Assembly (NCBI GenBank): GCA_041744535.1
Contig: JBGTKR010000491.1
Span: 1-51,523, forward strand
Reading direction: 5' to 3'
Length of the DNA: 51,523 bases
Source of the DNA: Pyrinomonadaceae bacterium
GTDB lineage: Bacteria > Acidobacteriota > Blastocatellia > Pyrinomonadales > Pyrinomonadaceae
The notes under the pieces are model-generated. The model saw nothing but the letters and a program-made list of their open reading frames with translations, did not search any database and was not told where the DNA came from. Shown piece by piece: positions 8,143 through 48,979 of this stretch. A program made the translations under genes and the position numbers. Within the stretch, counting starts at the first letter, position 1. Every line of letters begins with the position of its first letter.

Positions 8143-8212
8143 TTCTGCTTTCCTTTTCTGCCAAACTTTTCTCTTGATTTTTGTTAATTCTCTATAATCG
8201 ATTTTGACTTGA

Positions 8213-10877: not shown

Positions 10878-11083
10878 TGCTCTTTCTCAGCCTCCTTTTA
10901 GAATTTTGATTTTTATTTTTGGAAAGATTTATTCTTTCCATTGATATATGATTGTTTTTTCAAAATCATTACAGGAAGAATTTGCCGATATTGAGAAAAG
11001 TAAGAGATTTTTCAATGAGTTAGGAAATGTGCAAAATGTTTTTTTGCATAAAAGATAAGATTTTCGGAGACTTCTTGTAGAAA

Positions 11084-11446
11084 TCATTTTTTAATCAATG
11101 AATCCACCGCGCCCAGTACCTCACGCTTATAAAAAGGTTTATCCAGCGTGCGGTCGGCTCCGAGATGTTTTGCCATTTCGATACGCGGGTTTTCCACCCC
11201 TCCTCCGCTCATGGCAATGATCCTGACACCGGGATATTTCCTTCGGAGTTCCATAATGGTTTCAATGCCGTCTTTTCCCGGCATCTTTATATCGATAATT
11301 ACTAAATCAGGCTGCAATCGCAAATAAACTTCAAGATCTTCCGCACCGCCCCCTGCTTCCAGAACTTCGTGTCCGGCAAACTCCAGAATTTCTCTCAGGA
11401 CGTGTCTGAATTTTTCTTCGTCGTCAACAATCAAAATTTGCGCCAT
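11084..11446 (-). CDS. Stand-alone CheY-like response-regulator receiver domain
   Basis: ILIVDDE..., DLVIIDIKMPGKDG (phospho-acceptor Asp context), IIAMSGGG and DKPF are all present. The protein is 120 aa with no output domain. Confidence 0.9.
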   Translation of the reverse strand: MAQILIVDDEEKFRHVLREILEFAGHEVLEAGGGAEDLEVYLRLQPDLVIIDIKMPGKDGIETIMELRRKYPGVRIIAMSGGGVENPRIEMAKHLGADRTLDKPFYKREVLGAVDSLIKK

Positions 11447-11686
11447 TTTTCATCCCTACCCTGTCTTTTACGATTATTGCAAACGATTATCACATCAATA
11501 GATGCGGAGACCAAATACTTCATCGTTATAAGGCTTGATTTTACAAATCTTTACAAAACAATTTGTTTAACAGGGATGAGTTTATATGGATGAAAGAAAA
11601 AGCCGGTTTGAGAAAATTAACAATAATATTGCAGAGAAACCTGACTCTAATGATATAATCTGCCTATATTTCCCTGAGAGAGTGCG

Positions 11687-11833
11687 TGGCAAGATTGGGG
11701 AGGAGTCGAACCCTTGCGGTTCGGATAATGCCCCGACCTGCCAAAAACATTTCGACGCGTGTGGCAGCGCTTTAATTGTTGAAACCGAGAAGCCCTGATG
11801 TCTTAACCATTTGGGCTTCTCGGTTTTCTCAAC
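11687..11833. other. Cluster of stable hairpins; possible structured RNA or terminator, strand unresolved
   Basis: One hairpin has a 14-bp perfect stem, aaaccgagaagccc (11782-11795) with gggcttctcggttt (11813-11826), extended by gttg/caac. A second is cgaacc-cttgc-ggttcg (11707-11723), enclosed by gggg/cccc. A third pairs ctgcca (11738-11743) with tggcag (11762-11767). An alternative partner, tggcaa, lies at 11687-11692. Confidence 0.3.
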
Positions 11834-12228
11834 CTGCATTCATGCAATGAAAATTGAATCTGCCCCGAAATATGTAGTTTTCAAGCAGTATAATATACCC
11901 GTATCTCTTGAGATCGGTAAATAACCGTTCAGAACTGTTTATAACTTTTAATCTTAGAAAAGATCGAAATGTTATGGAAAAAGATAAAATATGATTTACT
12001 GTCGTGAAAAGCTTATACTTCCTACCAAAACCTTTGCGAAGAACTAAATAAAGTCCTTTACAAATCGGCTCAAAATATTACATTACTTTTGCTTAGGTGC
12101 TTAGATTTTTGCACATTACTGAGAGTGTCAAAAATCACTGATTGTCAAAGTTTCTTTAGTAATCTGACCGGGCGAACCTTTAACAATCAAGACAAGATTA
12201 ATTATGTTTTCTTTCACGCAAACGCAAC

Positions 12229-13077
12229 TCATCCTTCTACAGGAGGATATTCGATTGCCGGAACACAGGCTCCAACTTCGATACCTTTTGGATTCTTGCT
12301 TAATTTGAATTGCCTATTCTCTGTATCAGGATCCTTTAGCAGATCATAATAAAAGCGAAAATCAGAGTCATCTTTCATAAGCTCTTCACATTCCGGCTTA
12401 TTAGTACAGTGATTGGTAAACATAATGTCATAGACAAACTCAGCGGCGGAATCTCTCTCGGGAAGTTTTAACTCGCTAATAAGAGTTGCCTCATGAGCTG
12501 CCTCAATTTTGATTTCAGTTTCACTACCGTTGTCGCACATTATTTTTCCGCCTAATATCTTGCCGAATTCCTTATCTGTAGCACCTGGATTAGCCGTATC
12601 CTCTATCTGAAAACCCTTGATTGTCTCCAGCGTGTAAAAGGCACAATCACTAATAGAAAGAACGATGGGAGGCGAGGGCGGCGGCGGATTTTTAGGAACA
12701 AGTCCCTTTCTATGTAATATAGGCAGATTCAGCATCTTACTTAAATGATGTTCGTCGGGGCTGATCGGGGCTTCGATGCTACCGAAGGATGTTGAATTAT
12801 TCGCCTTGACAGAAATCTTTTGTCCCAAAACAATTTTGGCAATGTGGTAAAGAATCGGTACATTTGAACCGCGCCTTTTTTGAATAACTGCCAGGAAAAG
12901 CTCATGGTGCGGCACATGGCTTAAAAATTTTATTTCCGAAATATCGGTCGCCAGCCGGCAAAGTGCCAGTCCGGTTATCGAAATCCTGACATTTGCATCG
13001 GCGGGAAAGGATTCGGCGGTTGCCGACTCGGATAAAAATAATTCATTAACCTTTAGTGATTTTGTTTCTTTAGACAT
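12229..13077 (-). CDS. Hypothetical protein, last gene of the ECF/CHAT cluster
   Basis: This 282-aa ORF starts 37 nt after the CHAT gene stop on the same strand. It has no signal peptide, a PPPPSPP linker and Cys/His-containing C-terminal segments. I recognised no family. Confidence 0.6.
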   Translation of the reverse strand: MSKETKSLKVNELFLSESATAESFPADANVRISITGLALCRLATDISEIKFLSHVPHHELFLAVIQKRRGSNVPILYHIAKIVLGQKISVKANNSTSFGSIEAPISPDEHHLSKMLNLPILHRKGLVPKNPPPPSPPIVLSISDCAFYTLETIKGFQIEDTANPGATDKEFGKILGGKIMCDNGSETEIKIEAAHEATLISELKLPERDSAAEFVYDIMFTNHCTNKPECEELMKDDSDFRFYYDLLKDPDTENRQFKLSKNPKGIEVGACVPAIEYPPVEG

Positions 13078-13114: not shown

Positions 13115-16100
13115 CTAAAATTCCGAAAATCCTCCGAAGGGGATAAAAGCAGCCCAGTAATACGGGTTACGAAACTGCGTATTTTCACCTTCAAGTAGAT
13201 CTATCTGCGCCCGGCGCAGGGCTGCCGGCGTCGAAAGCTTTTCCAGTTTGCGATAGCGATGAAAACGTATCATCAGCTCCGCGGTCGAATCCGAATCAAC
13301 CTTCCACTGACTGGCGACAATAACCGGAACTCCTAAAGCCAAAAAAGTCCGGGCTGCTCCAATCATTCCCTCACCCTCATAAAAGCGTTCGACCCCGGTT
13401 TCACAAGCTGAAAGAACAATGAGTTGTGTATCTGAAAGTTTTCCCTCAAAGATTTCATAATTAGCGAGAACCGAATCCTTCTTTTCCCGCGTCTGTACGT
13501 TTTCCGCCAGGACAAGGGCGGAAAATAGAGGATTTTTTTGATCGACAACATAATGCCCGGCAAAATGCACCACATCCGCTTTTGACAAATTCTCTTTTAC
13601 CATCTTTTTTGAGGCATCCTTTCCCGTCAATAGAACCGTCGTTTTGTAGAACCGAGAAATCTCCCTTGCTTCCCATTCAGCCGAATCGAGATCAGCTAAA
13701 TCCGCAAACTCTTTTCGACTAAATGACGGATTCCCGATACTGAGCAGGGTTTCGTCCGTATTTTCGAACAACTCACGCGCTCTTTTGGAACTGTTTAAGA
13801 AAACATTGGCACTTGGCGACAGGAACAGGTTGTATTTAGTAATAAAAAACCTATTCTCCCCCGGTGAAATAAGGGCGGCAACAGATAGATGAAATAATAT
13901 CTTGTCGGGAATCAGACAGACCTTTTTTCCCCCGTCCAGTTTTTCTTCTACCGGGCTGATCAGTATTTGGTAAAGTTCTCTGGCTAAAGCGTCCCGCTCG
14001 TTTGCTTGCGGGTGATTGCTGATTGAAATCAAAGCCAAAAATTTTCTGACTTTATCCTCCAAAGCCGGGGCGGAAATATCCGTTTTATAGACGCTGAATT
14101 CCTCTTTTGTCAGCAGCCAGATCAGGGTTTTATCGCCGAGGACAGAGTACTGGATGATTTGCACATCTTCGGGCATCATCGCCCTGATCTCAGACAGTTT
14201 TAGCGGTTCGGCAACATTTAAAGAAAATTTAATTTCAGGATTTAGCCCTTCCTTTGAAATTTCGACAGCAGCATTTTGGAGATCCAGGAGGGAACGCGAA
14301 CGGGATTCTTCGGAATAATCAAAAGCTCTTTCATAATTTTGTTTTTCAAATTCGTAATTAGTAGCGATATCGTAAACGCTCTGTTCCTTGTCAAAAAAGA
14401 GATTCCGGTTCTGTTCCTCCAAAATCTTTGTCCGGTATTCGCGGAAAAGACTCAAAATAACCGGAAGTTCCCCTTCAAAACCGGAATCGTCGTTGGTCTC
14501 GGAGTAGCAGAGCAAGCGTCCCTTATGAGCTTCATAGCGATTTATTTGAAATTCTCCGGTTTCGTAAAAAGTAAGAGCTTTTTCATAATTTTGTAACGCC
14601 TGCGAACAGTCTTTTGCCTGTCGCTGGATATGTGCCGTCTGCAAATCGGCATAAGCATTGCTTTTCTTCTTTAATGCCTCATCGGTAAATTCTTCTGCCA
14701 CTTTCCGCCCCTTATCGAATGAGCTAAAAGCTTCCTCATATTTCCCCTGAGTCCCGTAAATGAGTCCCAGGTCTATATACGATGAGTAAACGAACGAATC
14801 TACCCGCAGGGCTTTCGCCAATATCAAAGATTCATTTCTGTAAGTTATTGCCGCATCATATAATTTCATTGCCAGAAATATGCCTGATACGGCGTAGAAA
14901 TCTCTCCATTTTTGGCGGTCGCTGGATTCCGGAAAAGCGGCTAAAAAAAGACCTTTTTGGGCAAAAACGAGAGCCTCATTATTGTCGCCAAGCCGCCGAT
15001 AAACGTCGGCTTGCTGCAAAAGAGATTTTTGCTCGTTAAAAAGATCAAAAACCTGCCCGGAATACTCAATCGCTTTCCGGTTATATTCAATAGCCCCGGA
15101 CAAATCTTTTGAAATCACCCCATTGTTTGCGAGCCAGCCGAAAACGTGCGAAGCCAGCCAGTAGTATTTATTGCTTTCACAAAAATCGGATAATTCCTGA
15201 AGAATCCGCGTACTGTTATCAATCTGGTTGAGCCGGTTTAGAGAATACCCGATCCAGTAATCGCAAAACCGGGCTTCCCAGATATTTTTAGATTTTTCAA
15301 AAAGAGCACGGGCGCGGGTAAACTCGGCAAGCGCCTTCTGGTGATTGTTTAGCCCGATTTGTTCATATCCTTGGCGGACTGAATTATTTGCCTCTTTGAG
15401 ATCGACCATCTGAGAGGGTGTCGCGGCAGCGTAAAACTTTGCGATATCTAAAAAAAACAGATCACGCGACCTGTTTTTTTCAAGTTCTCCGATATACGTC
15501 ATCGCCGATAAATACTTCGGTTTATCAGTGCCTTCAGCTTCCAAAAATAAAAAAATAAGCTGTTGCGGGATCAATTTTCCGGTTATCATCTCCCGATTTC
15601 GACTGACAATCCGGTAAGCCGTTTCATCATCCGCGTTGTGGTAGGCAGAAAAAAAATCCTGCAGAAGTTGTTGCGGGGTTTTGCTCTGTTGCCGGTTGAA
15701 TTCGAGCAGTTTTAAATTATTACGAGCCTCGTCCGCCCAGGGCGAGAAAGAGTCTTTTTCCAGATATTTCTGCCAAGCTTCTCGTGCCTGCTGAGCAAGT
15801 CCCATTTTTTGCAAAATTAAAGCCCGGTTGAAAAGTGCTTCGGGCAGCGAGTCATTAATTTCTAAAGCCCGGTTGAAGGCTTCAAGACTTTTTGCCTTAT
15901 TTACCAAGCTCTCGTCAAATTTTTTGTCCGCCTCCTCTAGTTTGGATTTCTCCAGAAGAGTGGCACCGATGTCGCTGTGGAGCGCGGCATTATCCGGTGC
16001 CAGCGTTAGGGCGAGGTTAAATTCTTTTAATGCCTCATCGAATTTTTTGTCCGCTAAAAACAATAGCCCGAGCGCGTGATGGGCTTGCGCGTCCGTTTCA

Positions 16101-16768
16101 TTTAAGGTCGCGTCCAGCAGAAACCGTTCGGCGCGGCGATATGCCCGCTGATCCGCGGCAGCAGGGTCGGAGCCGCGGGTTTCCGACATCGGAGCGTAAT
16201 CAAAATTCACCGAAAGGCGCGGCTCGACGGGGCGCTGCCCGCGGTAGGCAAGGCGAAGCTGGGCAATTCCCCGGTCAACATCCGATTGATAAAACGCTAC
16301 CCGCCAAACGCCTAAGACGAGAAATCCCGCAATCAGAATTACGGCGGCGAACCGGACAGTCGCCGTAGAAAACAGCTGCCGCCAGAAAAAACCCGCTCTT
16401 TTTTCTTGAACCGGTTCTTTTAGGTTTTGCGTTTTATTTTTGCCGGCATATTTTTGCAAATTTCGGATGAGCTGAAGTTTTTCCTGACGTTCGGGAAGAA
16501 TCAGAAAAAATCTGAGAAAATGCTCCCGTTGCGACTGAGTGAGATCGCCGTCCAGATAATTTTCAATCAATTCGTCTTCGGCGACGGATATTTTTTCATT
16601 GAAATCATCATCAACCATAATTTTTTCTTCGAATTGGCGCATTTTCGTTTCATCAGCCAGGTTTCCCAGCAGGTAGTCCCTGATCGCCGATTGCTCATCC
16701 AAATCATCTTTTATCTCCTCTTCACCCTTCTTCATAACATAATGACCAAAATTAAAAAAACCTCTCAT
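13115..16768 (-). CDS. Anti-sigma-like N-domain, TM segment, TPR array and CHAT (caspase-like) protease
   Basis: I place the start at the Met whose ATG overlaps the sigma-factor stop as ATGA (16765-16768). The N-terminus reads IRDYLLGNLADETKMRQFEEKIMVDDDF...LIENYLDGDL. The TM segment is VRFAAVILIAGFLVLGVW. A long TPR-like region follows. The C-terminal CHAT dyad is VVHFAGH...LIVLSACETG. Confidence 0.85.
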   Translation of the reverse strand: MRGFFNFGHYVMKKGEEEIKDDLDEQSAIRDYLLGNLADETKMRQFEEKIMVDDDFNEKISVAEDELIENYLDGDLTQSQREHFLRFFLILPERQEKLQLIRNLQKYAGKNKTQNLKEPVQEKRAGFFWRQLFSTATVRFAAVILIAGFLVLGVWRVAFYQSDVDRGIAQLRLAYRGQRPVEPRLSVNFDYAPMSETRGSDPAAADQRAYRRAERFLLDATLNETDAQAHHALGLLFLADKKFDEALKEFNLALTLAPDNAALHSDIGATLLEKSKLEEADKKFDESLVNKAKSLEAFNRALEINDSLPEALFNRALILQKMGLAQQAREAWQKYLEKDSFSPWADEARNNLKLLEFNRQQSKTPQQLLQDFFSAYHNADDETAYRIVSRNREMITGKLIPQQLIFLFLEAEGTDKPKYLSAMTYIGELEKNRSRDLFFLDIAKFYAAATPSQMVDLKEANNSVRQGYEQIGLNNHQKALAEFTRARALFEKSKNIWEARFCDYWIGYSLNRLNQIDNSTRILQELSDFCESNKYYWLASHVFGWLANNGVISKDLSGAIEYNRKAIEYSGQVFDLFNEQKSLLQQADVYRRLGDNNEALVFAQKGLFLAAFPESSDRQKWRDFYAVSGIFLAMKLYDAAITYRNESLILAKALRVDSFVYSSYIDLGLIYGTQGKYEEAFSSFDKGRKVAEEFTDEALKKKSNAYADLQTAHIQRQAKDCSQALQNYEKALTFYETGEFQINRYEAHKGRLLCYSETNDDSGFEGELPVILSLFREYRTKILEEQNRNLFFDKEQSVYDIATNYEFEKQNYERAFDYSEESRSRSLLDLQNAAVEISKEGLNPEIKFSLNVAEPLKLSEIRAMMPEDVQIIQYSVLGDKTLIWLLTKEEFSVYKTDISAPALEDKVRKFLALISISNHPQANERDALARELYQILISPVEEKLDGGKKVCLIPDKILFHLSVAALISPGENRFFITKYNLFLSPSANVFLNSSKRARELFENTDETLLSIGNPSFSRKEFADLADLDSAEWEAREISRFYKTTVLLTGKDASKKMVKENLSKADVVHFAGHYVVDQKNPLFSALVLAENVQTREKKDSVLANYEIFEGKLSDTQLIVLSACETGVERFYEGEGMIGAARTFLALGVPVIVASQWKVDSDSTAELMIRFHRYRKLEKLSTPAALRRAQIDLLEGENTQFRNPYYWAAFIPFGGFSEF

Positions 16769-17334
16769 GCCCCATTTTCTGCAACGCATCCGATCACGCA
16801 TTTCTTTAGGCTGCGGCGGATCCGTGAGGCTTTGACCTGGAAGGCAGTTTCACTGATTCCCAAGTTTTTTCTCATTTGTTTCCGGTGCCGGATTTTTACA
16901 CTTTTTTCGCCCTGGTAATACTCAATTATAAATTCTCGCTGCCGCTCGGGCAGAGTTTTCATACAATCTTCCAAGCATTTGTATTCAATTTCTGAATCTG
17001 TTTCGGTATTCTGATGGTGTATGATGGACGGTTCCATTTTTTTCAGTCTTTTCTGCTTTCTGAGCCATTCGAGATAGATTTTATTTGCCACCCCATAAAA
17101 ATAAAATCCCGGCTCGCCGGTGTAGCTGTCAACGATATGCGACAATTTTAGTGCAACGCGGCTGATTGTTTCGTCCGCCAACTCCTCTGCTTCGAAACAA
17201 CCGCGACCGGCAAAAACACGAATCAACCGCTGACGGATTTTTTCGTATTTTTGCCCGGCAGTTTCCTGATCCAGGTCAAGCCATCCGAGAAGGGAGTGAA
17301 AGCTTTCCCGTGTTACTGTATCTTCTTTAACCAT
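16765..17334 (-). CDS. ECF-type sigma-70 family RNA polymerase sigma factor
   Basis: Region 2-like sequence is IRQRLIRVFAGRGCFEAEELADETISRV...YFYGVANKIYLEWLRK. Region 4 is LPERQREFII...LGISETAFQVKASRIRRSLKKC. The start is set at MVKEDTV, because the upstream 44 codons look like non-coding read-through. Confidence 0.8.
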   Translation of the reverse strand: MVKEDTVTRESFHSLLGWLDLDQETAGQKYEKIRQRLIRVFAGRGCFEAEELADETISRVALKLSHIVDSYTGEPGFYFYGVANKIYLEWLRKQKRLKKMEPSIIHHQNTETDSEIEYKCLEDCMKTLPERQREFIIEYYQGEKSVKIRHRKQMRKNLGISETAFQVKASRIRRSLKKCVIGCVAENGA

Positions 17335-17618
17335 TATCAAAACAGGCTGGTTTAAAATATAGACCCGCAGCAGCAGCGCCAAGATGCACGTAATAAAGGT
17401 AGAGCAAGACTGCGGATAAACCAATTTGCTATAATTTGCTATAGGATTAAAACCCGACTTAACCAACAGGAGATTTTACTAAAATTGGTTTAGGCAAATT
17501 TTCTTCCTCTTCAACCAACTAAATAATGTGACGCTCTTTTTTTCCGGATACCCAGTTTCAAATTATAAAAAATTTACTTGTCGCGGACGGTTTTTTGTTT
17601 AATACTGGTTAAAGGATT

Positions 17619-19028
17619 TTACTCATCAAGTATTATCTCAATTAATTCAAAAAACCCTTCTTCAATTTCCTCTGTGGAATAATAATTTGTCTGCGCCTTC
17701 ATTTCTTCAACCATTTTCGGTAACGGCACTTCCGTTTCCTCGGATTTACCGTGCTTTCCCTTCATAGTTGAAATTACTGTTTTCATCTTTTCGGCTTTCT
17801 CACCTTGTTCGGTTTTCTTTTCAAAACCGTGCCAGATTGACTTGGGCGTGGCGTTACGGCTGCCGTGATGCCCAACTTTGTAAAGAGTAGTACCGCGTAA
17901 TAGGTTTCGTAATTTCTCATCCGTTTTGGCTTGATCCAGAAGGTATTGCCAGTTCTCAATTTGGGCATCTCCGGGGAAAAGCAGTTTCTCGTCTCCGACT
18001 TCGATTAAAAGAATAACGCTGGTATTATTTAGCGCGTTGTCAACAAATCGAACGATCTCAAGCAGTTGATTGGCTCTGAGCGAACGAAGTTGACGGACAA
18101 ACCAGCGGACGTTCGGTGGTACGAATTCCTCATCAAGAACTTTATCTTTGGCAAAAAGGAGCGTCTTGCCTTCAATATGCCCTTTTGTCAGGTTACTTGT
18201 TGCTGCCTGGGTCGCCCAAAAATTCTTGGTCATTGCCTGCAAAGACCAGAATTCATCACTTGTTTTCGTCGCGCGGGTAATTTTATCGCTTTGTTCCAAA
18301 CTCGGCGGTCCCAGCACATGAACTTTTACTCCCGGCAAGATCGTTTCCCAATCGATTTTGTCATAACCGAAATTAACATAATGATTCTCGCCCATCTTTT
18401 GCAGGTTGTCGACCGCCGCCCGATTCTTTATCTGGTTATCATCGGCGGCAAAAATAATTTGTTCGGTCAGCTGATTATCAATCGTTTTGGTAAATTTATT
18501 GGTATTGGAAAGATTCTTGATTTCAGCTTCGATCGAGGCGGCAACAAACTGCATATCGTTTAACATCGCCGCGAAATTCTTAGATCCCTCCGTTTTGAAA
18601 TCAAGCTGATTCAAAAAGGATTTCTTCACATTTAAATCACGATTGTCATCCGGGTTTTCCGTCCAGGGCTGGATGACAATCGTGGGGTGACAATCCATAA
18701 TTATTTTTCCCGCTTCCTTTAAACCGAACCCGTAAATATGATCTTTGTGGCGATGCGTCGCCACGACGATATCGAGCTTTCCGTTAGATGTTGCTTTGAT
18801 ATGTTCCGCAATTTTCAGCAATCTCTGCCCGGTTGTATCCTTATTTTTTTCTTCAATTTCATTTACTTCTGATTCGCCATCTTTTTTATGTTTGCCTTTA
18901 CCCATACTGCCAAAATCAATTAAAACGCTTCTTTGGACGCCGTCATCATATTTGAAGATAATCAGAAAACAGTCGCCGAAATAGACATTATATGAGTACA
19001 GTTCAATTTTATCAGGCTGATTTGACAT
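17619..19028 (-). CDS. Cytoplasmic metallo-beta-lactamase-fold hydrolase
   Basis: DIVVATHRHKDHIYGF contains HxHxDH. PGDAQ and YKVGHHGSRNA lie in the C-terminal half. There is no signal peptide. The gene starts 2 nt after the upstream protease stop. Confidence 0.85.
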   Translation of the reverse strand: MSNQPDKIELYSYNVYFGDCFLIIFKYDDGVQRSVLIDFGSMGKGKHKKDGESEVNEIEEKNKDTTGQRLLKIAEHIKATSNGKLDIVVATHRHKDHIYGFGLKEAGKIIMDCHPTIVIQPWTENPDDNRDLNVKKSFLNQLDFKTEGSKNFAAMLNDMQFVAASIEAEIKNLSNTNKFTKTIDNQLTEQIIFAADDNQIKNRAAVDNLQKMGENHYVNFGYDKIDWETILPGVKVHVLGPPSLEQSDKITRATKTSDEFWSLQAMTKNFWATQAATSNLTKGHIEGKTLLFAKDKVLDEEFVPPNVRWFVRQLRSLRANQLLEIVRFVDNALNNTSVILLIEVGDEKLLFPGDAQIENWQYLLDQAKTDEKLRNLLRGTTLYKVGHHGSRNATPKSIWHGFEKKTEQGEKAEKMKTVISTMKGKHGKSEETEVPLPKMVEEMKAQTNYYSTEEIEEGFFELIEIILDE

Positions 19029-19030
19029 CT

Positions 19031-20845
19031 CTAAAATCCCTCCGTTTCATCAATTTTACGGTTGAGCACTCGGTTCAGGTGCATCCGCGAAAAAGCGTTT
19101 TCCGTATAATCCGGGTTGCCGAGATAACCATATTGCCAGAGATACTTAATCCGCTTAGGCTGGTGGGTACGGCTAAAAATACTATTCGCAATATGATATT
19201 TTAACTTCCCGTATTCATCAAAGATAAGAGTCCCTCCCCCGTAGAGCGTAATTTCCACATCGTCGGGAATTTCCGGCGGGATATTAATGCCGAGCGGCGG
19301 CAGTTCATCGGCTCGTAAAGTCGTCATTTGAACATATTCGGCAACCGTTTCGCGGACAACAAAACCGTCGGGACCGACGCGCAAACAGGGGCGCACGGAT
19401 TGAACTTTCATATAAGCTTTACCGAAGTAGTCCTGCTCGGTTTCCAAATTCAGATCGGCTCGGTTATCCCAGATAAAGCGAAAGATTTCGTTCGGGTCGC
19501 GTAAAAGGGAATCAAAATGTGTGCGATCGTAACAAAAGTCCCTATTGGTCATCCGCCAGAATCCCTCAGTGATGGAAGACCCCGGAGCTGGTTCGATGCC
19601 GTAGGAGGCAAAACTATCGCGTAAGATCTGCCGGTAGCCATACCGCGAATCATCCGGCACGGTTTCGCGGTCAGATGTCAGCAAAGCACTCAGATAATCA
19701 TGAAAGCGAATATCGGTCGGCGGCATGTAATCGAGGGCGCGAATCGCTATCGTCAGCAGATGATCTGCCGCTTCCGCGCCTTCATCGACGACAATCGAAG
19801 CGTCAATTTCCTGTCGTCCCCGGGTAAATCTCTCCATTCGTCTGAGCCATACTTTTAAAAAGGCGTTCATCAGCGCGGCAACAAGAAGTTCGCCGCATTT
19901 ATGCGGTTCCTGAAAAGCCCCCTGCTGCAAGTAAGGAACGGGTTTTTTGGTGTTCACGCGCGGCAATTCATCTAAAGTCGGCAACACGGCGGAACGCCTC
20001 AACGCACTACCGCGAATTCCCGAAAGTTCTTGTCCCATCTGTTCTGCCAGTCCCAGCAAGGTCGTACTTTTCAGATAATCCTCGGTTAGAAACTCGACCG
20101 GAACATTATTTTCCTTAATTTCAAATCCGGCAATCTTTTCCATATTGACATTAAGCAAAAGGTTTTTGACAACGTCTTTTAATGAAAAAACCGAAAGTAG
20201 TGCGACGACATCCGCGAAGCCCTCATGAAAACCGGCTTGCTCGGGTGAAGATGGGGCAGTGTAACGTTCACGTAAACCGTCTAAAATAGCGTGGGTTGTT
20301 TCGTGGGCAACCACATCGTGCGACAAACAGGTGAAAACCACACCCGAAACATCGGTTTCCGACGGCACGCGAAAATAACCGAAAGCCAAAGCCTGGTCGC
20401 GTTTGGAATAAAAGGCATTGGCATCGCCAAAAGCGTGGGGGGCAACGTAAATCTGGTGACCGTCAAATCCCCAACTGATTCTTCTGCCCAGGGCGAACTC
20501 GAATCGTGCCAGCGTTCTCATCACGATCGCATAAACATTTTGGGCGTGAAAACCCGGCTCATCAAGCAACTCCTCAATACGTCCGTCCTCGGCATATGCG
20601 GCAAAAGGGTCAATGTAGCAGCCGTCCTCCTGCGGCGGCTCATATGGTTGCGGTTGATAGAGCGTTCCGGTCGAGGTGTCATAATCAACGACGTGAACGC
20701 GATAACCGCGAGGTCCCGGGGCTAATTCCTCCGCGGGGATCTCGACTTGGGTTACAAGAATACTTTGAGTTTTCTTATTGATTATGCTTGGATCCTGGGC
20801 AATAATCGTTAATTTTCGGGTGCGGGGTAGTGGTCTTGATCTCAC
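19031..20845 (-). CDS. Cytoplasmic thermolysin-like (gluzincin, M4-like) zinc metalloprotease
   Basis: The motif is VVAHETTHAILDG...AGFHEGFADVVA. This is HExxH plus a third-ligand Glu in an xEGxxD context about 23 residues downstream; compare thermolysin HELTHAV...GAINEAISD. There is no signal peptide or TM segment. Confidence 0.8.
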   Translation of the reverse strand: MRSRPLPRTRKLTIIAQDPSIINKKTQSILVTQVEIPAEELAPGPRGYRVHVVDYDTSTGTLYQPQPYEPPQEDGCYIDPFAAYAEDGRIEELLDEPGFHAQNVYAIVMRTLARFEFALGRRISWGFDGHQIYVAPHAFGDANAFYSKRDQALAFGYFRVPSETDVSGVVFTCLSHDVVAHETTHAILDGLRERYTAPSSPEQAGFHEGFADVVALLSVFSLKDVVKNLLLNVNMEKIAGFEIKENNVPVEFLTEDYLKSTTLLGLAEQMGQELSGIRGSALRRSAVLPTLDELPRVNTKKPVPYLQQGAFQEPHKCGELLVAALMNAFLKVWLRRMERFTRGRQEIDASIVVDEGAEAADHLLTIAIRALDYMPPTDIRFHDYLSALLTSDRETVPDDSRYGYRQILRDSFASYGIEPAPGSSITEGFWRMTNRDFCYDRTHFDSLLRDPNEIFRFIWDNRADLNLETEQDYFGKAYMKVQSVRPCLRVGPDGFVVRETVAEYVQMTTLRADELPPLGINIPPEIPDDVEITLYGGGTLIFDEYGKLKYHIANSIFSRTHQPKRIKYLWQYGYLGNPDYTENAFSRMHLNRVLNRKIDETEGF

Positions 20846-20904: not shown

Positions 20905-22116
20905 TTATCCGACTCCGACTAATGGGAACAGGAATTTTGAAGGTTCCGAAATTGAACTATTGACATACTGCCGCATACCGAGATCAGAGACGGCATATCC
21001 CCAATTGATTAATCTTTCCTGCGTTGCCTGATCGAGCTTTTTAAGCCGGGTGTCAACTTGGGCAAGAAGAGTAGTTTTATCGAACGGGCAATCGAGCGGT
21101 GTTTCTATTTTATAATCCAGTGCCGCATCCGCGCTGATCGTCCAGTAGGTTCCTTGTCTGATTCCTGCAATAAAAGCCTCGACCGCCTGACGTTTTCTGA
21201 GGCTCCTGACCTGATTGTCGATTGTCATCAAAATCCGCACGGAATGCCTGACCCAATCTCTGTGCGGATCGGCTTCCGCGGAAAAACCTCCACCGGCATC
21301 ACTGATCAAAATCGTTTTATATCGTTTCCAGGCGGTTTCAAGCCCTAGATTGTCATACACCCCTCCGTCGGTCAGAACAACCTGCGTGCGGAATTCATCC
21401 CCCTGCAAATCGGTTCCGCTGCCGGGCGTAAAATCCGCCGGGTCCAGATCGAGTTCCATCGGCGAGAGAACCGGCGGGAAAGCGGACGAGGCAGCGACGG
21501 CGACCGCCAGATCGATCTTCGGATTTTTGACTTCGCCGACCCGGTAATCCCTCATATAAGGTTTCATAAACCGCCACAGAACGCCCGATTGGACATTCGT
21601 CGCATTGAAGACAAACCGCGGAGACTGACCCGGCACTTCGTCCACAATGTCCTGCAAAGTGCTGTCTCCAAAGAGATATTTCCGGTATGCGTCGGCAACC
21701 TTATCGCTGATGCTGCCGAACCATAACGCTCCGAGTGCGACCGAGGAGACATCAATCGTCCGGGATGCCAGGTTCTTTATCGGAGAGACGATCAGTTGCT
21801 CAAAATTTTGAGCAACTCCGTCATGAAAATCGAGTTCCTCCCACTTTAAAGCCAAAAGTCCGGCAGTGATCGAACCGCCTGAAACACTCGAAATGCGGTT
21901 TATTTTGGGAAGCCAGCCGATCTCATTGAGCCGCCAGAGAACACCGGCGTGAAAAAGCATCGCCCGGTAGCCGCCGCCCGAAAGACATAAAGCAATGCCT
22001 TCTTCCGGCTCTTTACTCACATCCGTTTCAAGATATTGCACCGGTTCCGCGGCATTTTGATCTTTTTCTTGATAAATTTCGCTTTCTTCGTTATTTTTCA
22101 TCATATTTGAGCACAT
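20905..22116 (-). CDS. Patatin-like phospholipase
   Basis: CLSGGGYRAMLFHAGV is the GGGxR oxyanion box. SSVSGGSITAG is the nucleophile elbow. LTDGGVYDNLG holds the catalytic Asp in DGG. The start may be Met5 or Met6 (22104 or 22101). Any of these starts overlaps the upstream ORF. Confidence 0.9.
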   Translation of the reverse strand: MCSNMMKNNEESEIYQEKDQNAAEPVQYLETDVSKEPEEGIALCLSGGGYRAMLFHAGVLWRLNEIGWLPKINRISSVSGGSITAGLLALKWEELDFHDGVAQNFEQLIVSPIKNLASRTIDVSSVALGALWFGSISDKVADAYRKYLFGDSTLQDIVDEVPGQSPRFVFNATNVQSGVLWRFMKPYMRDYRVGEVKNPKIDLAVAVAASSAFPPVLSPMELDLDPADFTPGSGTDLQGDEFRTQVVLTDGGVYDNLGLETAWKRYKTILISDAGGGFSAEADPHRDWVRHSVRILMTIDNQVRSLRKRQAVEAFIAGIRQGTYWTISADAALDYKIETPLDCPFDKTTLLAQVDTRLKKLDQATQERLINWGYAVSDLGMRQYVNSSISEPSKFLFPLVGVG

Positions 22117-22885
22117 CTATGTAAAGAGATTCCTCCGCCTCTTCATCCTTATCATCAGCAGTCAAGGAAAACGGTCTGATCGATTTTAGCGGTCCGACCG
22201 AAGTGCTAAACCATTTTCGTTTTATGCCGACCAGCTGAAAAAGCGGCGTAACATTTTCAGATTCGAGCATATTCAGCATCGTTCCCGATTGTTTTTTGAT
22301 TGAAAATTTCAGACCGGCATCTCCGAGTTCGACATTACCGACCTGTCCGCTGGCTTGGGCTTCGAGTTCCAATCCTGATTTTGACGATTGCGACACGATG
22401 ATATCGGCATATGGAGCTTGAACAATCGAATAAATAACCGCGTAGTTCTTTTTCCAAACATCGGTTTTATATGCTTCAAGAATTTGTTTTTCGAGTCGCG
22501 CGACATTTCTGATGCGCGGCTCGAAAGTTTTTTTGGCTTTGATAATAAAAGCTCCTTCAGAAGAAAATTCTATCCCGAGACCGGCTTTGCCTTTAGGAAT
22601 ATTGGGCATCGCGGGATTTACCTCACCGGCTAATTTGAAAGCCAGACTGACGCTTTTACTCGAAACCAGATCGATCGGCGAAGAACTGGTGTCAGGAACA
22701 ATGTCCTTGTCGGGCGAAAAACTTATTCCCAAATCGGCAAGCGTCGAAACGGGACGGAAAAAGTAATCGTCAACAACCTCGCCGACAGTGCCGATCTCGA
22801 TGCTTGAGCTAGGAAGCCAGTGAGCAAAATAAAACTTTGTTTGTCTTCTTACATTTTTGGCAAAAACTTTAGCAACAGTTCCCAT
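22091..22885 (-). CDS. Gasdermin-like (bGSDM-like) candidate pore-forming protein with acidic C-terminal tail
   Basis: The protein is 264 aa, soluble and beta-rich, with no Cys. The N-terminus reads LPSSSIEIGTVGEVVDDYFFRPVSTLADLGISF. The later segment is YAVIYSIVQAPYADIIVSQSSKSGLELEAQA...LKFSIKKQSG...TPLFQLVGIK. A tail of about 35 aa follows (...LTADDKDEEAEESLYIDVLKYDEK). It is the first gene of an operon that contains a protease. The family assignment comes from my recollection of the pattern, not from a search. Confidence 0.45.
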   Translation of the reverse strand: MGTVAKVFAKNVRRQTKFYFAHWLPSSSIEIGTVGEVVDDYFFRPVSTLADLGISFSPDKDIVPDTSSSPIDLVSSKSVSLAFKLAGEVNPAMPNIPKGKAGLGIEFSSEGAFIIKAKKTFEPRIRNVARLEKQILEAYKTDVWKKNYAVIYSIVQAPYADIIVSQSSKSGLELEAQASGQVGNVELGDAGLKFSIKKQSGTMLNMLESENVTPLFQLVGIKRKWFSTSVGPLKSIRPFSLTADDKDEEAEESLYIDVLKYDEK

Positions 22886-23283: not shown

Positions 23284-24474
23284 TTACCACATCATCACGG
23301 CGGTCTCCTCTTCTCGTTCAGCGTAATAAAGCCGAATGCGAAGAACGTATTTCTTCCCGCTGAACAGTTTCACCTTCAAATAGGCATTTCGGTCTTCGCC
23401 CCCATCGTCATCGCCGGCAAGATAACGAAGTTTTTCGCCGTCGCGTTCAAATAAAACCATCACGGTGTCGGACGCGCCGAACGTGCGGATTTCGTAATTT
23501 CGGGTTGCCTGGGGTTCGATCTCGAAGTTTTTCTGCTCGCCGGGAGCAATCGACAGCCTTACTGATTCCGCAGGTTTGAGTTTCGGGAAACCGCCTGCTT
23601 TTAGAGGTGGATAAAATGATTTGACCCAGGATTTGTCCCTAACAGAAAGTCCTCCGGCAGGTCTTATTCCGTTTGCGTGAAAATGTGCCGGTTCTTTTAT
23701 AAGTCCCGGTTCAAACGGATAATGCATAATTGAGTTCGGGTCCCATTCGGATCCCTGGACTGTGTCGGGCGAGATTTTTCTTATAATATTATGAAAGGTC
23801 GTCTCTCTGCTCCACCTGTTCGGCGGTTTGGCAAGGGCGGCATAAACGGCTTCCTCGTCCCACGCGATGCCGGCGATCGGATTTTGATGCTCGTGCGGGA
23901 AACCCAAAGTGTGACCGATTTCATGGATAGCCGTATCAATCTCTCCGGGATGGCTCGTTAAATCCCAGCCGAAATTCATAGTCCGCTCGCTGCGCCCGAG
24001 ACCGAGATCAATAATATCGCGTCCGACAAATGACCAGGCACCGTCTTTCCGCTCAAATCCGATGCGGATTTCCGCCTCATCCCTGGAACTGACCTCCTTA
24101 AAATTCAGACCGATGCCGGCTGCCTTCCATGCATCAAAAGCCTGTCGCACCACATCCATTTCCCGTTTGGTCGTTTTCCACGCCCGCCACTCCTTTTTAC
24201 CGGTTGCCATCGTTACATGCCGCCCATCTCCTTCCTCATTAAAAAAATAATAATGGAGGGTTGTTCCATTAACCCATTTTTTCCCGTTTATAATGATTAA
24301 ATCCAATCTGCCTGGGTTGAGACCCGCCGCAAATTGCGGGGCGGAAACCATCGGGATTGAACAATATGCAGGAAAACCTGTTTCCGCCGGTTCGCTTTCG
24401 GAAATTGGCGGCTTTATTACGGGTTCACTTTTTGCAGCTTTTTTTGTTTTGCTTTTGTTGCTTTTTTTTGTCAT
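23284..24474 (-). CDS. Astacin-family (M12A metzincin) metallopeptidase with C-terminal PPC-like domain and no recognisable signal peptide
   Basis: HEIGHTLGFPHEHQNP matches HExxHxxGxxHE. SIMHY is the Met-turn. The C-terminus YEIRTFGASDTVMVLFE...GDDDGGEDRNAYLKV...YVLRIRLY resembles a pre-peptidase C-terminal domain. The N-terminus is Lys-rich (MTKKSNKSKTKKAAKSE) and not hydrophobic. Confidence 0.85.
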   Translation of the reverse strand: MTKKSNKSKTKKAAKSEPVIKPPISESEPAETGFPAYCSIPMVSAPQFAAGLNPGRLDLIIINGKKWVNGTTLHYYFFNEEGDGRHVTMATGKKEWRAWKTTKREMDVVRQAFDAWKAAGIGLNFKEVSSRDEAEIRIGFERKDGAWSFVGRDIIDLGLGRSERTMNFGWDLTSHPGEIDTAIHEIGHTLGFPHEHQNPIAGIAWDEEAVYAALAKPPNRWSRETTFHNIIRKISPDTVQGSEWDPNSIMHYPFEPGLIKEPAHFHANGIRPAGGLSVRDKSWVKSFYPPLKAGGFPKLKPAESVRLSIAPGEQKNFEIEPQATRNYEIRTFGASDTVMVLFERDGEKLRYLAGDDDGGEDRNAYLKVKLFSGKKYVLRIRLYYAEREEETAVMMW

Positions 24475-25021: not shown

Positions 25022-25570
25022 TTAATCGCGCCGGGTGTATTTTAGGACTAATTCTTTGATTTCCCCGTGGCGCACTTTGCCCAGTTTTTCTTCCAATTCC
25101 GCGATCAATTCTTCCCGGCGGAATGTTTCCGAAAAGGAAACGTTGGCAGAATTTCCTTTGGATTCAATTTTGTTTGGCAATTTTCGGGCAATCGAAGTTT
25201 TAGTATCTCTTTTTTCCTCTAGAATTGTTTCAAGAGCTTTGGTCAAATCAAGGGGGGCTTCAATAGCCTTTAGCGTCCCAATACTCCATTCGCTCAGAAC
25301 ATATCGAGTTTCTTTCTCATGCCGGTCATCTTCACGCCTGATTTTATTCAACGCTTTTCGGGCGGAAATTATCGTCAGACAAAAGAGAGGAATTCCCGCC
25401 GCAAAAGGGAAAGCTATAAATACTGTCAGCCAATATCCGCCGGGCAACAGGTCAAAGATGTAAAAAAAAGGTAAGAATCCGACCAAGCTCAGAACAAGCA
25501 GCACTCCGAAAATATCGGCGAGTTCATCGGCATATTTATCATGCCAACTTAACGAGCCAATTTTAGTCAT
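25022..25570 (-). CDS. Small multi-TM membrane protein, unknown function
   Basis: Two or three hydrophobic helices are present (IFGVLLVLSLVGFLPFFYIF and YWLTVFIAFPFAAGIPLFCLTIISA). A charged helical C-terminal half follows. The gene starts 40 nt after the upstream 745-aa gene. Confidence 0.6.
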   Translation of the reverse strand: MTKIGSLSWHDKYADELADIFGVLLVLSLVGFLPFFYIFDLLPGGYWLTVFIAFPFAAGIPLFCLTIISARKALNKIRREDDRHEKETRYVLSEWSIGTLKAIEAPLDLTKALETILEEKRDTKTSIARKLPNKIESKGNSANVSFSETFRREELIAELEEKLGKVRHGEIKELVLKYTRRD

Positions 25571-25610
25571 AAATTTATCCTCTCTCCTCTTACTTTTTTG
25601 TTTATAAATC

Positions 25611-27848
25611 TTAATAACGCGGCGTTCGGGTCAAACGGAGAATCAAATCATCCCATCTTTTCCAGGCGGTCTCGTTTGAAGCGCTTATCAATATTTTCTT
25701 AAGCTCTTTTTTCTTAAACGTTTTATCTTGTTTTGACAGGCTCTCGAATGCCGCCAAGAGTTTATCGTAACTTTCCTTTTCTGCCGCCGCCAAATTTTTC
25801 TCCCTGATCTCCTTAGCCATCTCTTGCTTAAGAAACTCATACGCAAGGTTCGTAACAAGGTATTGCTCAAACCAGAAAAGTGTTTTGACCTGTGTGATGA
25901 TATTCTTACCGTCCCTTCCGACCTGGTTTCTCTGGATACTGACCGTATCTTGTGCAATTTGCTCGGTACCTGTTTTGATCTCGCCCAGTAAAGCTTTGTT
26001 CGATTTGTTAATGCCAACTAATGATTCGGTACCCGGGTCATCTCCAGCCGAACCAACCACCCTTTTAAGATTGGCAAGGTCATTTGAAAAACCATTAAGC
26101 CTGGTGAGAAGGTTACCGTTATTTGGCTCATTAATGTTTTTGTAATAATCAGCGGTTCCGAGAAAATCTGAAATCCGGTTTATTTTTCCGAATAATTTAC
26201 TGTCATCGCGTCCCGCATTCGAATCGCCGATGTCTTCCGTAATTTTTTCTAATCCACTAAACAAAGTTGTTGATTTTCCGGGAGTCGGGTCGCCGATCCG
26301 ACCAACAAATTCACTTCTTAGACTGTTGACCTCGCGTTCAAAGTTTGACGTATCGATTACTGAACGACCTCCAGGAAATAGGAGGACTCTGACGTTCCCT
26401 CCAAACTGAGCGTTATTTATTCGCTGCTCTAATTTATTAACACTCCCCTTTAGCTCATTAAGGCTCAAAGTCAGGGCTTGAACCGATTGGTCATTAAAGT
26501 TATAATCATCCCCAAACGTAAAAAAATTACGGTCTGAGTTTTTGTTGTTCGGGGCACCTTTCCCGCCACTGGTGATATTCGAATTCAAGAGGGCGTTTTG
26601 CGTCTCCCCCGATCTGTAATCAGATGAGATCAGACCTTCCGCCGAGGTTGGAAATTGAGTGGCAACGACGACGACAGCCGCCGAGCCGATACCGATCGCA
26701 ACCAAAGTGGGAAAAATTGCCGGAATAATACCCGGGGCGAGCGGGGATATCTTTTTTAAAGCCAGAAATTCCGTAGCTTTTCCCGTTAATGTATCAGCCG
26801 AACCCGACAGGAAAAAGATGCGCCTGACAGGTATCAAAATTATAAAGAGCAGGGCGAAAACAATAACGGCATTAAGACTTATCGTGAGAAGCTTGTAAGC
26901 GATACTTAATTTTCCGTTATCATCAAAAAACAGTTTCTCTCCGCCTTCTGCTAATTCGGTAAAAAATGTTTTGCTTTCACTGCCCTGCGCGGAAGCCGAA
27001 TCTTTTTTTATTTGTAAAGAACTTTCCCATTTTCCCTTTGTCAGATAAATATTTCTGAAAATGGGCTGGTAGGAAGAGGCGACGTTTTCAATTCTGTTTT
27101 TGTACTCATTTGTTATGTTGGCTCTTTCGCTTTTCGATATGAGAGTTTCAGATTCCTCATCTAATTTTATTATTAATTCTTGCGGAGTATATTTTTTTTG
27201 TTCGCTTTTGTCTCTGATTTTGGTGAGAATCGCCCGTTTTCCGTCAGCTTTAATACCCGGCTTAACCGGCTCGGGAAATTTTATCTGAACAAAACTTTCA
27301 ATATCGACTTCCGTTACGTTATCTTCTAGAAACTCGGTCAGGGCTTGTTTTATCTCAAACAACTCCTTCATCTTTTCTTCCCTGATTTCATTTTCAGCTC
27401 TCAATGATATAAACAAGCTATTTTGCAGACTCGCCAGTTTTATATCGCGGCTCTTTATCACAGCTCCGTTTAAGGCTCCGATCATCTCATCTTCGCCGCT
27501 AAAGTTCTGGTATTGAATTTCAAGGATGCCCCGCCGAATTGTTTGAATCTGCTCCTCATTTAAACTACCGTGCTTTTGTTCCCCGTTTGGATTTTTAATC
27601 TTTTCGACCACCTTTTCAGACGGGATTGTCCTGACATACTTAAGATCAGGCGGATCCTCATCGGTTATCACAATTGGTGATTTTTTCCGTTTCCCATAAT
27701 CCGTCTGACAGGCTTCCAATTTTATTAGCAGAGACATTGCCAATAGGGAGATGACGACAAAAATAACGGGTCTTTTGGTTCTTTCCCAAATGATTTTAAC
27801 AGTTTTATCATCATTTGACTGAACTTTTTCAGGAGCTTTTTTTGACAT
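25611..27848 (-). CDS. Large membrane protein with coiled-coil-like segments, unknown function
   Basis: The N-terminal TM segment is VIFVVISLLAMSLLIKL. Two central TM helices are LLTISLNAVIVFALLFIILIPV and IIPAIFPTLVAIGIGSAAVVVVAT. Long charged helical stretches flank them. I recognised no catalytic motif. Confidence 0.6.
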   Translation of the reverse strand: MSKKAPEKVQSNDDKTVKIIWERTKRPVIFVVISLLAMSLLIKLEACQTDYGKRKKSPIVITDEDPPDLKYVRTIPSEKVVEKIKNPNGEQKHGSLNEEQIQTIRRGILEIQYQNFSGEDEMIGALNGAVIKSRDIKLASLQNSLFISLRAENEIREEKMKELFEIKQALTEFLEDNVTEVDIESFVQIKFPEPVKPGIKADGKRAILTKIRDKSEQKKYTPQELIIKLDEESETLISKSERANITNEYKNRIENVASSYQPIFRNIYLTKGKWESSLQIKKDSASAQGSESKTFFTELAEGGEKLFFDDNGKLSIAYKLLTISLNAVIVFALLFIILIPVRRIFFLSGSADTLTGKATEFLALKKISPLAPGIIPAIFPTLVAIGIGSAAVVVVATQFPTSAEGLISSDYRSGETQNALLNSNITSGGKGAPNNKNSDRNFFTFGDDYNFNDQSVQALTLSLNELKGSVNKLEQRINNAQFGGNVRVLLFPGGRSVIDTSNFEREVNSLRSEFVGRIGDPTPGKSTTLFSGLEKITEDIGDSNAGRDDSKLFGKINRISDFLGTADYYKNINEPNNGNLLTRLNGFSNDLANLKRVVGSAGDDPGTESLVGINKSNKALLGEIKTGTEQIAQDTVSIQRNQVGRDGKNIITQVKTLFWFEQYLVTNLAYEFLKQEMAKEIREKNLAAAEKESYDKLLAAFESLSKQDKTFKKKELKKILISASNETAWKRWDDLILRLTRTPRY

Positions 27849-36285: not shown

Positions 36286-36293
36286 CTTTTGAT
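36286..36293. repeat. Right copy of the 8-bp target-site duplication of the IS256 insertion
   Basis: cttttgat follows the right IR directly. Confidence 0.85.
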
Positions 36294-36355
36294 ATTTTTT
36301 GATGAAACCAAACGCAACCAACTTCTAAGCGAGGTAGTGTCCTAATAATGTGTTG

Positions 36356-36541: not shown

Positions 36542-36564
36542 TGTTTTTCCTCTTTGTTTATTAT

Positions 36565-37536: not shown

Positions 37537-37550
37537 AATTTTTATTCCTT

Positions 37551-38295: not shown

Positions 38296-38304
38296 AGGTA
38301 AAAA

Positions 38305-40049: not shown

Positions 40050-40125
40050 AATCGTAAGATTATCACAAGTAAAAATGCGTTGCCAGAACTTATTTTGCCT
40101 AGCAACACATTATTAGGACACTACC

Positions 40126-48977: not shown

Positions 48978-48979
48978 TT

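Follow-up and report, generated by a model that had tools for sequence, protein, structure and literature searches.

A cysteine-free, gasdermin-like gene in a metalloprotease, MBL-fold and patatin cassette of a Pyrinomonadaceae bacterium

An unannotated gene in a 51,523-nucleotide (nt) stretch of DNA from a Pyrinomonadaceae bacterium (Acidobacteriota; GenBank assembly GCA_041744535.1, contig JBGTKR010000491.1, positions 1 to 51,523; hereafter the window) was found to encode a protein that is very probably a distant and divergent homologue of the bacterial gasdermins (bGSDMs). Gasdermins carry out pyroptosis in organisms ranging from bacteria to humans. Although unannotated, the target belongs to a known kind of protein, bacterial gasdermins having already been described. 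Two features are unusual: its membership of a large branch almost entirely without N-terminal cysteine, and its location in a cassette of metalloprotease, metallo-beta-lactamase-fold (MBL), patatin and sometimes astacin-like genes. No description of such a combination of gasdermin with patatin, metalloprotease, zincin and MBL genes was found in the literature searched.

22091-22885, minus strand: gasdermin-like gene, 264 amino acids (aa), no cysteine; supported by its open reading frame (ORF), ribosome-binding site (RBS), homologues, AlphaFold 2 (AF2) model, and fold and profile links to bGSDMs

The gasdermin-like gene is real, conserved and rare. Its ATG is preceded by a perfect AAGGAG at 9 nt and by a promoter-like site at about 57 nt (22971-22942), and a search of 5.8 billion proteins returned 16 homologues (E from 1e-110 to 3e-38), none of which carries an informative name. 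The RBS, the promoter-like site and the homologues argue together for a real gene rather than a chance ORF. A preliminary description of this DNA, made from the sequence alone, had proposed a cysteine-free, beta-rich, gasdermin-like protein of 264 aa with an acidic C-terminal tail. The minus-strand ORF does encode 264 aa without any cysteine, every peptide string quoted in that description is present in the protein, and a count from the AF2 secondary-structure string gave about 37% strand and about 11% helix. The stretch it had named as the N-terminus (IEIGTVGEVV...) corresponds to residues 29-56, whereas the protein in fact begins with MGTVAKVFAKNVRRQTKFYF, a helix of basic character, five K/R and no D/E being present among residues 1-20. 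As for the C-terminal extension, its acidic character was confirmed (10 D/E vs 6 K/R), whereas its length had to be corrected from about 35 residues to 41 (residues 224-264). No transmembrane-like or signal-like segment was found in the protein.

An indirect link to gasdermins came from fold comparison. The AF2 model of the target, built on the 17-sequence alignment of its family, had a predicted local distance difference test score (pLDDT) of 80.3 and a predicted template modelling score (pTM) of 0.76. Structure prediction followed by a fold search had been suggested in the preliminary description, and Foldseek comparison of the model with the PDB placed gasdermins at all of ranks 1-13 (E from 6e-5 to 2e-2, probability 0.66-1.0). 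These matches included GSDME, the GSDMA3 pore, a Vitiosangium bGSDM (two entries), the Trichoplax GSDM, Neurospora RCD-1, the Runella and Bradyrhizobium bGSDMs, and GSDMB. The best of them were pore-state chains, the pore chains of fungal RCD-1 being among the top matches, and the target model itself displays long extended strands (148-165 and 203-223). Pore formers of the MACPF/CDC type, which are much larger proteins of a different topology, came behind the gasdermins, at ranks 14-27 (E >= 0.08, probability <= 0.15); the same order of matches has been reported for bona fide bGSDMs (Fig. S2 legend of the published work). A viral structure library gave no match to the target model (best E = 0.12), which argues against a promiscuous beta-rich model. 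At the level of primary sequence, no similarity was detectable between the target and the fungal proteins HET-Q1 and RCD-1. In its general features the target resembles the bGSDMs of known structure (Bradyrhizobium 7n50, Vitiosangium 7n51/8sl0 and Runella 7n52; Johnson et al. 2021/2022): these are proteins of about 260 aa with a fold like that of the gasdermin N-domain and without a large C-terminal domain, and they share with the target two amphipathic hairpins, nearby protease genes and a defence-island setting.

Profile evidence was obtained from a wider set of relatives. The family profile, compared with 1.84 billion representatives, matched 2,131 clusters (50% identity) at E <= 1e-3, most of them of about 250 aa, and 1,478 at E <= 1e-10. 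A sample of 114 sequences from the 2,131-cluster set was used as the superfamily, as opposed to the narrow family of 17 sequences. The profile of this superfamily matched the crystal structure of the Bradyrhizobium gasdermin (7n50_A) at E = 2e-5, and its hhalign comparison with an alignment of canonical Bradyrhizobium-type gasdermins reached a probability of 91.9% (E = 7e-7) over 176 collinear columns, in register (24-208 vs 24-209). When the 114 members were scanned individually, the only curated families to recur were PADLOC bGSDM (14/114, best 1.8e-5) and NCBIfam prok_gasdermin (4/114). The Pfam-A copy searched returned no family for the target, nor for P0286, a canonical Bradyrhizobium gasdermin used as positive control (precomputed PF26164), so this negative is uninformative and says nothing on PF26164. 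A PDB sequence search with the single sequence and with the narrow-family profile yielded nothing meaningful, apart from a chance WYL match at E = 0.63.

Several observations weigh against homology and would fit a beta-rich protein of unrelated function whose fold resembles that of pore formers superficially. The target has no match at E <= 0.1 to the PADLOC bGSDM (PDLC02986) or NCBIfam prok_gasdermin (NF051890) models, and in this it differs from canonical bGSDMs; the miss is real, since the PADLOC model scored the control P0286 at 4e-48. Profile searches with gasdermin models, also suggested in the preliminary description, were thus successful for the relatives and unsuccessful for the target itself. 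The Foldseek TM-scores of the gasdermin matches all remained below 0.5 (0.28-0.46, with root-mean-square deviations > 10 Å), the narrow family aligned weakly with bGSDMs in hhalign (probability 9.8%, E = 3e-3), though in the same register, and the AF2 model was based on only 17 sequences. However, such an unrelated protein appears very improbable in view of 13 successive top PDB matches drawn from a single family and spread over four kingdoms (probability up to 1.0), the empty result of the viral library, the independent sequence-profile links to bGSDMs, and the protease fusions of the superfamily (see below), which fit gasdermin biology. The gasdermin identity guessed in the preliminary description from length, strand pattern and tail is therefore supported by independent evidence from fold, profiles, relative scan and fusions.

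The following elements were recognised within the protein:

22841-22876, minus strand: N-terminal basic helix, residues 4-15, VAKVFAKNVRRQ (helix 4-15 of the AF2 model)
22553-22660, minus strand: amphipathic beta-hairpin 1, residues 76-111, putative membrane-inserting finger 1 (period-2 moment; strands 79-84 and 102-107)
22289-22387, minus strand: amphipathic beta-hairpin 2, residues 167-199, putative membrane-inserting finger 2 (strongest period-2 signal; strands 170-176 and 194-200)
22136-22213, minus strand: tail linker, residues 225-250, predicted cleavage region (pLDDT < 50; length and sequence variable among homologues)
22109-22126, minus strand: C-terminal 'latch' strand LYIDVL, residues 254-259 (strand 254-258, pLDDT about 75)

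In the model, the N-terminal helix may occupy the place of the gasdermin alpha-1 'thumb'. The family-averaged hydrophobic signal of period 2 was concentrated in four segments (76-92, 98-111, 167-183 and 188-199). The moments at 76-92 and 98-111 exceeded the 95th percentile of shuffles, and only 4 of 500 shuffles reached the total period-2 signal of the target family. Strands 79-84 and 102-107 are paired in the AF2 model, as are strands 170-176 and 194-200, next to a beta core, and the tip of hairpin 1 (P94-x-x-P97...A101-G102) holds four residues, P94, P97, A101 and G102, that are invariant in the family. As each gasdermin protomer supplies four membrane strands, the arrangement of four segments in two hairpins matches the number expected for a gasdermin.

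The latch motif Y-[ILVF]-D-x-[LIV] was present in 11 of the 17 family members and a looser pattern in 13 of 17; in the wider superfamily the looser pattern occurred in 31% of the tails, against 12% of shuffled tails. In the crystal structure of the Bradyrhizobium bGSDM, the autoinhibitory peptide ends in A-F253-V-D255-L, and F253-D255 forms a short strand against the core. The similarity between YIDV in the putative latch of the target and FVDL of the Bradyrhizobium protein, both of the pattern aromatic-aliphatic-Asp-aliphatic, is a suggestive parallel. The 41-aa tail also fits the published range of bGSDM inhibitory tails, from 17 to 67 aa, and is close in length to the inhibitory peptide of HET-Q1 (38-43 aa; PMC13475620). 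HET-Q1 is cleaved by the subtilisin HET-Q2; RCD-1 has no inhibitory tail and works by heteromeric recognition.

Cysteine was found within the first six residues in only 2 of the 114 sampled superfamily members, and W23 and P25 were invariant. This indicates a large clade without N-terminal cysteine rather than a single loss, in agreement with the lipid-anchor-free branch envisaged in the preliminary description. In most bGSDMs, an N-terminal cysteine (C3/C4) is conserved, self-palmitoylated and important for toxicity, the Gillisia protein being without it (Johnson et al.). The target and nearly the whole superfamily differ from these bGSDMs by the lack of this cysteine and hence of a palmitoyl anchor. 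However, the residue marks a clade and not the limits of the bGSDMs, because the Gillisia protein is an accepted bGSDM.

Association with proteases recurs within the superfamily. The gasdermin-like domain is joined to a CHAT domain in a single polypeptide of 1,119 aa (P0150) and to an S8 subtilase in another of 649 aa (P0191). In the case of P0017, from the target's own family, a Peptidase_C14 caspase, which also matches the PADLOC 'caspase' model, is encoded two genes upstream. For P0299, from an alphaproteobacterial metagenome-assembled genome (locus L022, 7001-9734; also L023), the gene of a 637-aa Peptidase_M48 zinc protease starts 10 nt after the gasdermin-like gene. An assignment of this M48-like protease to the M4-like family of the window described below was rejected, the HExxH motif alone being alignable. 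The M48 linkage supports the view that zinc proteases can partner with the cysteine-less gasdermin-like clade, as a second and independent metalloprotease case. The novelty of such partners is tempered by a weak match of this M48 protease to PADLOC peptidase_U41 (PDLC03011), an accession listed among the gasdermin-system protease models with caspase and subtilase: this model may already partly catalogue them. The gene of another relative, P0005 (L002, 10001-10723; also in L003 and L004), is divergent to umuD/umuC (Peptidase_S24 and IMS) and could be an SOS-linked, tail-less gasdermin-like gene.

In the window, the gasdermin-like gene is accompanied on the minus strand by four genes, in the order astacin-like, a gap of 398 nt, gasdermin-like, patatin, a 604-aa HExxH protein and a 469-aa MBL-fold protein:

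23284-24474, minus strand: astacin-like metzincin, 396 aa, accessory protease or effector (Pfam Astacin 1.4e-8; HEIGHTLGFPH motif; Lys-rich N-terminus)
20905-22116, minus strand: patatin-like phospholipase, 403 aa, putative second killing effector (Pfam Patatin 2e-21; DGG at residue 250)
19031-20845, minus strand: thermolysin-like (M4/M36-fold) zinc metalloprotease, 604 aa, proposed activator (HExxH...E motif, AF2 and Foldseek)
17619-19028, minus strand: MBL-fold hydrolase, 469 aa, putative zymogen DNase effector (HRHKDH motif; 2 nt downstream of the M4-like gene)

Catalytic motifs are intact in the enzymes of this cassette, and none of the five proteins has a signal or transmembrane segment. 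The gasdermin-like gene is the first of an operon whose genes overlap or are closely spaced, the astacin-like gene lying just ahead of it. The patatin gene overlaps the gasdermin-like gene by 11-26 nt, as its possible starts at 22116 (inside the latch codons), 22104 and 22101 (both just downstream) all lie in tail codons.

The 604-aa protein is, as judged from its model and motifs, a cytoplasmic, thermolysin-like zinc protease. H181, E182, H185 and E208 (in GFHEGFAD) were invariant across 76 homologues, and the AF2 model (pLDDT 83, pTM 0.89) had fungalysin (M36), vibriolysin (M4) and aureolysin (M4) as its three best Foldseek matches (4k90, 3nqz and 1bqb; probability 1.0, TMt 0.50-0.55). The similarity is at fold level and does not amount to family membership, because Pfam Peptidase_M4 scored 13.5 bits, below its cut-off of 22.4, and the profile of the protein found no sequence match in the PDB. 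For an extra C-terminal domain (about residues 478-594), NTF2-like proteins and complete orange carotenoid proteins came up as weak fold matches (E > 0.03). The protease has over 5,131 homologues, all of them unannotated.

For the MBL protein, partial matches were obtained to PADLOC LmuA (9e-17), Avs1a and PDC-M48B and to NCBIfam Avs1a and ComEC; no sequence match was found in the PDB. Membership of the 6A-MBL anti-phage family was rejected (34.4 bits for a NF058524 cut-off of 220), as was membership of Avs1a, the similarity being partial (33 bits for a cut-off of 420). The astacin-like protein also scored 458 bits (E = 1.8e-137, cut-off 650) with the NCBIfam model 'beta-glucuronidase AbsR1' (S. 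coelicolor SCO6992, PMC9705864), a family name that looks at odds with its metzincin motif and fold.

Gene order and flanks vary among the window and two further loci, L001 and L012, whose gasdermin-like genes are 66-67% identical to the target, and yet patatin, M4-like and MBL genes occur in a tight same-strand cluster with the gasdermin-like gene in all three. A fourth close locus, L013, ends at the gasdermin-like gene and is uninformative. In L012, the M4-like and MBL proteins are only 33% and 28% identical to those of the window, for 67-77% in the case of the gasdermin-like, astacin-like and patatin proteins; the link between the members of the cassette thus spans deeply divergent M4-like and MBL lineages. 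Patatin was co-inherited in L001, L007, L008 and L012 at 67-86% identity. The astacin-like gene was found in L007 and L012 (76-77% identity) and is absent from L001, so that it occurs in two of the three informative loci. The L012 cassette continues (9288-12362) with genes for an M29-like aminopeptidase and for a STAND-like NTPase; the latter has weak matches to ATPase_2, AAA_22 and nSTAND1 and is a possible sensor that is not present in the window. This NTPase and the extra C-terminal domain of the M4-like protease are hints of a sensing function.

The M4-like gene is followed by the MBL gene in every locus sampled, the pair being kept in eight loci. Upstream of it, L007 has astacin-like and patatin genes without a gasdermin-like gene, L008 a patatin gene, L009 a metallophosphoesterase-like gene, and L010 and L011 a second, tandem paralogous pair. 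This variability upstream of a constant pair is characteristic of a protease hub whose effectors can be exchanged, and the pair may be an undescribed family of defence systems in its own right. With chances that we put well below even, it might form the core of a widespread, undescribed protease-gated defence family (> 5,000 'hypothetical' proteins) in which the zinc protease would license several killing effectors at once, here the gasdermin pore together with the patatin lipase and the MBL DNase.

Comparable modules have been reported. Protease-adjacent MBL proteins are zymogen double-stranded DNases unmasked by two cleavages (Evans et al. 2025, PMC12642450); the proteases paired with them are of trypsin-like, caspase-like or subtilisin-like type, and the same paper names metallophosphoesterase and gasdermin as other protease-associated effectors. 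The MBL protein of the window (ComEC-/Avs1a-like) likewise adjoins a protease, in a module that combines with varied components. It differs in that its partner is a zinc metalloprotease of M4/M36 fold and in that patatin, gasdermin-like and astacin-like genes share the operon. In CARD-protease defence systems, the effector may be a gasdermin, a phospholipase or an endonuclease (Wein et al. 2023, PMC10312443). These effectors replace one another in those systems, whereas all three types stand together in one operon of the window. The window cassette showed no sign of a CARD, an NLR-like ATPase or a trypsin-like protease; only in L012 is the cassette followed by a STAND-like NTPase. Canonical bGSDMs adjoin C14, CHAT, subtilase or trypsin-like proteases, in contrast to the M4-like metalloprotease, patatin and MBL partners of the target. 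The window cassette thus places three interchangeable effector types behind a protease class that was not found described for such modules in the literature searched.

These observations led us to favour, by somewhat more than an even chance, a protease-gated suicide cassette with several killing effectors, in which the target would be a divergent, palmitoylation-independent bacterial gasdermin and the M4-like protease its activator. Gasdermin homology, domain layout, intact catalytic motifs and the structure and conservation of the operon are shown by the data above, whereas pore formation, autoinhibition by the tail, the identity of the cleaving protease, the trigger and a defence role are inferred, along the following course. 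The target would be made as a soluble, autoinhibited precursor. Its core (residues 1-223) would carry the two hairpins able to refold into a membrane beta-barrel, and the acidic 41-aa tail would reach back through the disordered linker and clamp the core with the LYIDVL strand. A stress or phage signal would switch on the cytoplasmic metalloprotease, which would cut the 225-250 linker and free the core; the latter would then oligomerise and, with no lipid anchor, insert both hairpins into the inner membrane. If the analogy with serine-protease/MBL modules holds, the metalloprotease would also license the MBL nuclease and possibly the patatin lipase. Lipase and nuclease would act in parallel, and the infected cell would be killed by combined membrane and DNA damage. 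That the target is a cleavage-released pore former appears likely. Three proteases are encoded near it, and their respective roles as activator were judged separately: the M4-like enzyme, two genes downstream in the operon, has slightly less than an even chance; the TPR-CHAT protease located 5 kb downstream (see below) is an unlikely candidate; and the upstream astacin-like enzyme is a still less likely one. The remaining probability goes to another protease or to no cleavage at all.

The genes needed for the discussion of the CHAT protease, in which TPR stands for tetratricopeptide repeat and ECF for extracytoplasmic function, are the following:

16765-17466, minus strand: ECF sigma factor (sigma-70 ECF; overlaps the TPR-CHAT gene by 37 nt)
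13115-16801, minus strand: TPR-CHAT protease, 1,228 aa (CHAT 3.5e-62 and TPRs)

Some of our data weigh against the protease-gated cassette as proposed. Its association with the gasdermin-like gene is based on three loci, the search for related loci having returned two genome loci and six mostly short metagenome loci, too few for a statistical neighbourhood survey. A cleavage motif common to the linker of the target and to the four other cassette proteins (astacin-like, patatin, M4-like and MBL) was sought, and nothing stood above shuffles. Activation of any gasdermin by a metalloprotease was not found in the literature searched. Furthermore, a canonical TPR-CHAT protease lies on the same strand, two genes beyond the MBL gene, and it is possible that this caspase-like enzyme cleaves the tail of a genuine gasdermin while the patatin, M4-like and MBL genes constitute an independent neighbouring system. 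CHAT is the commonest partner of bGSDMs, often with TPRs, and accounts for 23 of 59 adjacent proteases (Johnson et al.), and one superfamily member is itself fused to a CHAT domain. However, no TPR-CHAT or ECF-sigma homologue was found in any of the 21 related loci, L001 and L012 with their close gasdermin-like genes included; a conserved partnership was therefore rejected and TPR-CHAT regarded as a local neighbour rather than a co-inherited partner. Four genes separate it from the target, it forms an overlapping pair of its own with the ECF sigma gene, and the overlap of the gasdermin-like gene is with patatin and not with CHAT. Cleavage by TPR-CHAT beside an unrelated cassette was consequently considered improbable, although TPR-CHAT stays the chief competitor of the M4-like protease for the part of activator.

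Another explanation retains the gasdermin fold and dispenses with cleavage: the protein would act constitutively or upon another cue, and the tail would serve for partner binding. In one version, the target would perturb or dock to the membrane and give the co-translated patatin access to phospholipids, in line with the overlap of the two genes. Cleavage-independent gasdermins are known, namely RCD-1 and TrichoGSDM, which have no inhibitory domain (PMC13475620). The more distant relatives in L002-4, L006 and L024-27 are orphan genes with no adjacent protease. In addition, P0005, 58% identical to the target, ends at 240 aa and persists in six contigs; a frameshifted tail was ruled out in this case, no latch being found in any frame. 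Its maintenance implies that tail autoinhibition relieved by an operon-encoded protease is not universal in the clade. On the other hand, the latch motif is kept although the linker before it varies, and it is similar to the strand that autoinhibits a bGSDM of known structure; fusions to proteases and neighbouring protease genes are also recurrent in the superfamily. The lipase-access version meets a further difficulty, since the L007 and L008 cassettes hold patatin, M4-like and MBL genes without a gasdermin-like gene, so the gasdermin-like protein is not a required lipase cofactor. On these grounds a gasdermin that is not gated by cleavage was considered unlikely, and release by proteolysis remained our preferred explanation.

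The wider surroundings of the cassette were also inspected, and the following features were recorded in the window:

2746-9442, minus strand: 1,798-aa RHS-repeat protein, then a 409-aa FG-GAP repeat protein; resembles a polymorphic-toxin locus, at the window edge
25022-27848, minus strand: two membrane-associated ORFs (182 aa and 745 aa), upstream of the astacin-like gene
34999-36222: Mutator-family transposase
36565-37536: IS1-like transposase
37819-38295: PDC-M04B candidate defence protein
41853-43244: unannotated 463-aa partner of the HerA-like ATPase
43305-45401: HerA-like ATPase
48980-50041: type II methyltransferase-like gene

The content of 34999-50041 suggests a mobile, defence-rich region. 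Settings resembling defence islands were noted for several loci: L001 has AbiE and an integrase, L009 has a TIR protein, and the window has HerA-like, PDC-M04B, methyltransferase and transposase genes. The 182-aa and 745-aa ORFs had no Pfam matches and no homologues in the related loci, and the 182-aa ORF gave a weak PADLOC PDC-S31 match (E = 0.007). An ECF sigma factor paired with a CHAT protease is reminiscent of the Craspase/Csx30/RpoE logic known from type III-E CRISPR.

The extent of the cysteine-less clade has consequences for the estimation of gasdermin diversity. The clade comprises at least 2,131 clusters (50% identity) and mostly escapes current gasdermin models, and surveys of bacterial pyroptosis therefore probably undercount it. 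To our knowledge, all characterised routes of gasdermin activation use cysteine or serine proteases, and the bacterial gasdermins characterised so far depend on palmitoylation at the N-terminus. If the wiring proposed here is functional, gasdermin activation would extend to a third catalytic class of proteases, protease-MBL modules would gain a fourth protease class, and bacteria would stack pore-forming, lipid-hydrolysing and DNA-degrading effectors behind one switch. The four- or five-gene cassette is compact and directly testable. Should the M4-like/MBL pair indeed be the core of a defence family that licenses several effectors at once, the target would be the first gasdermin activated by a metalloprotease, and the cassette a bacterial 'multi-executioner' of cell death.

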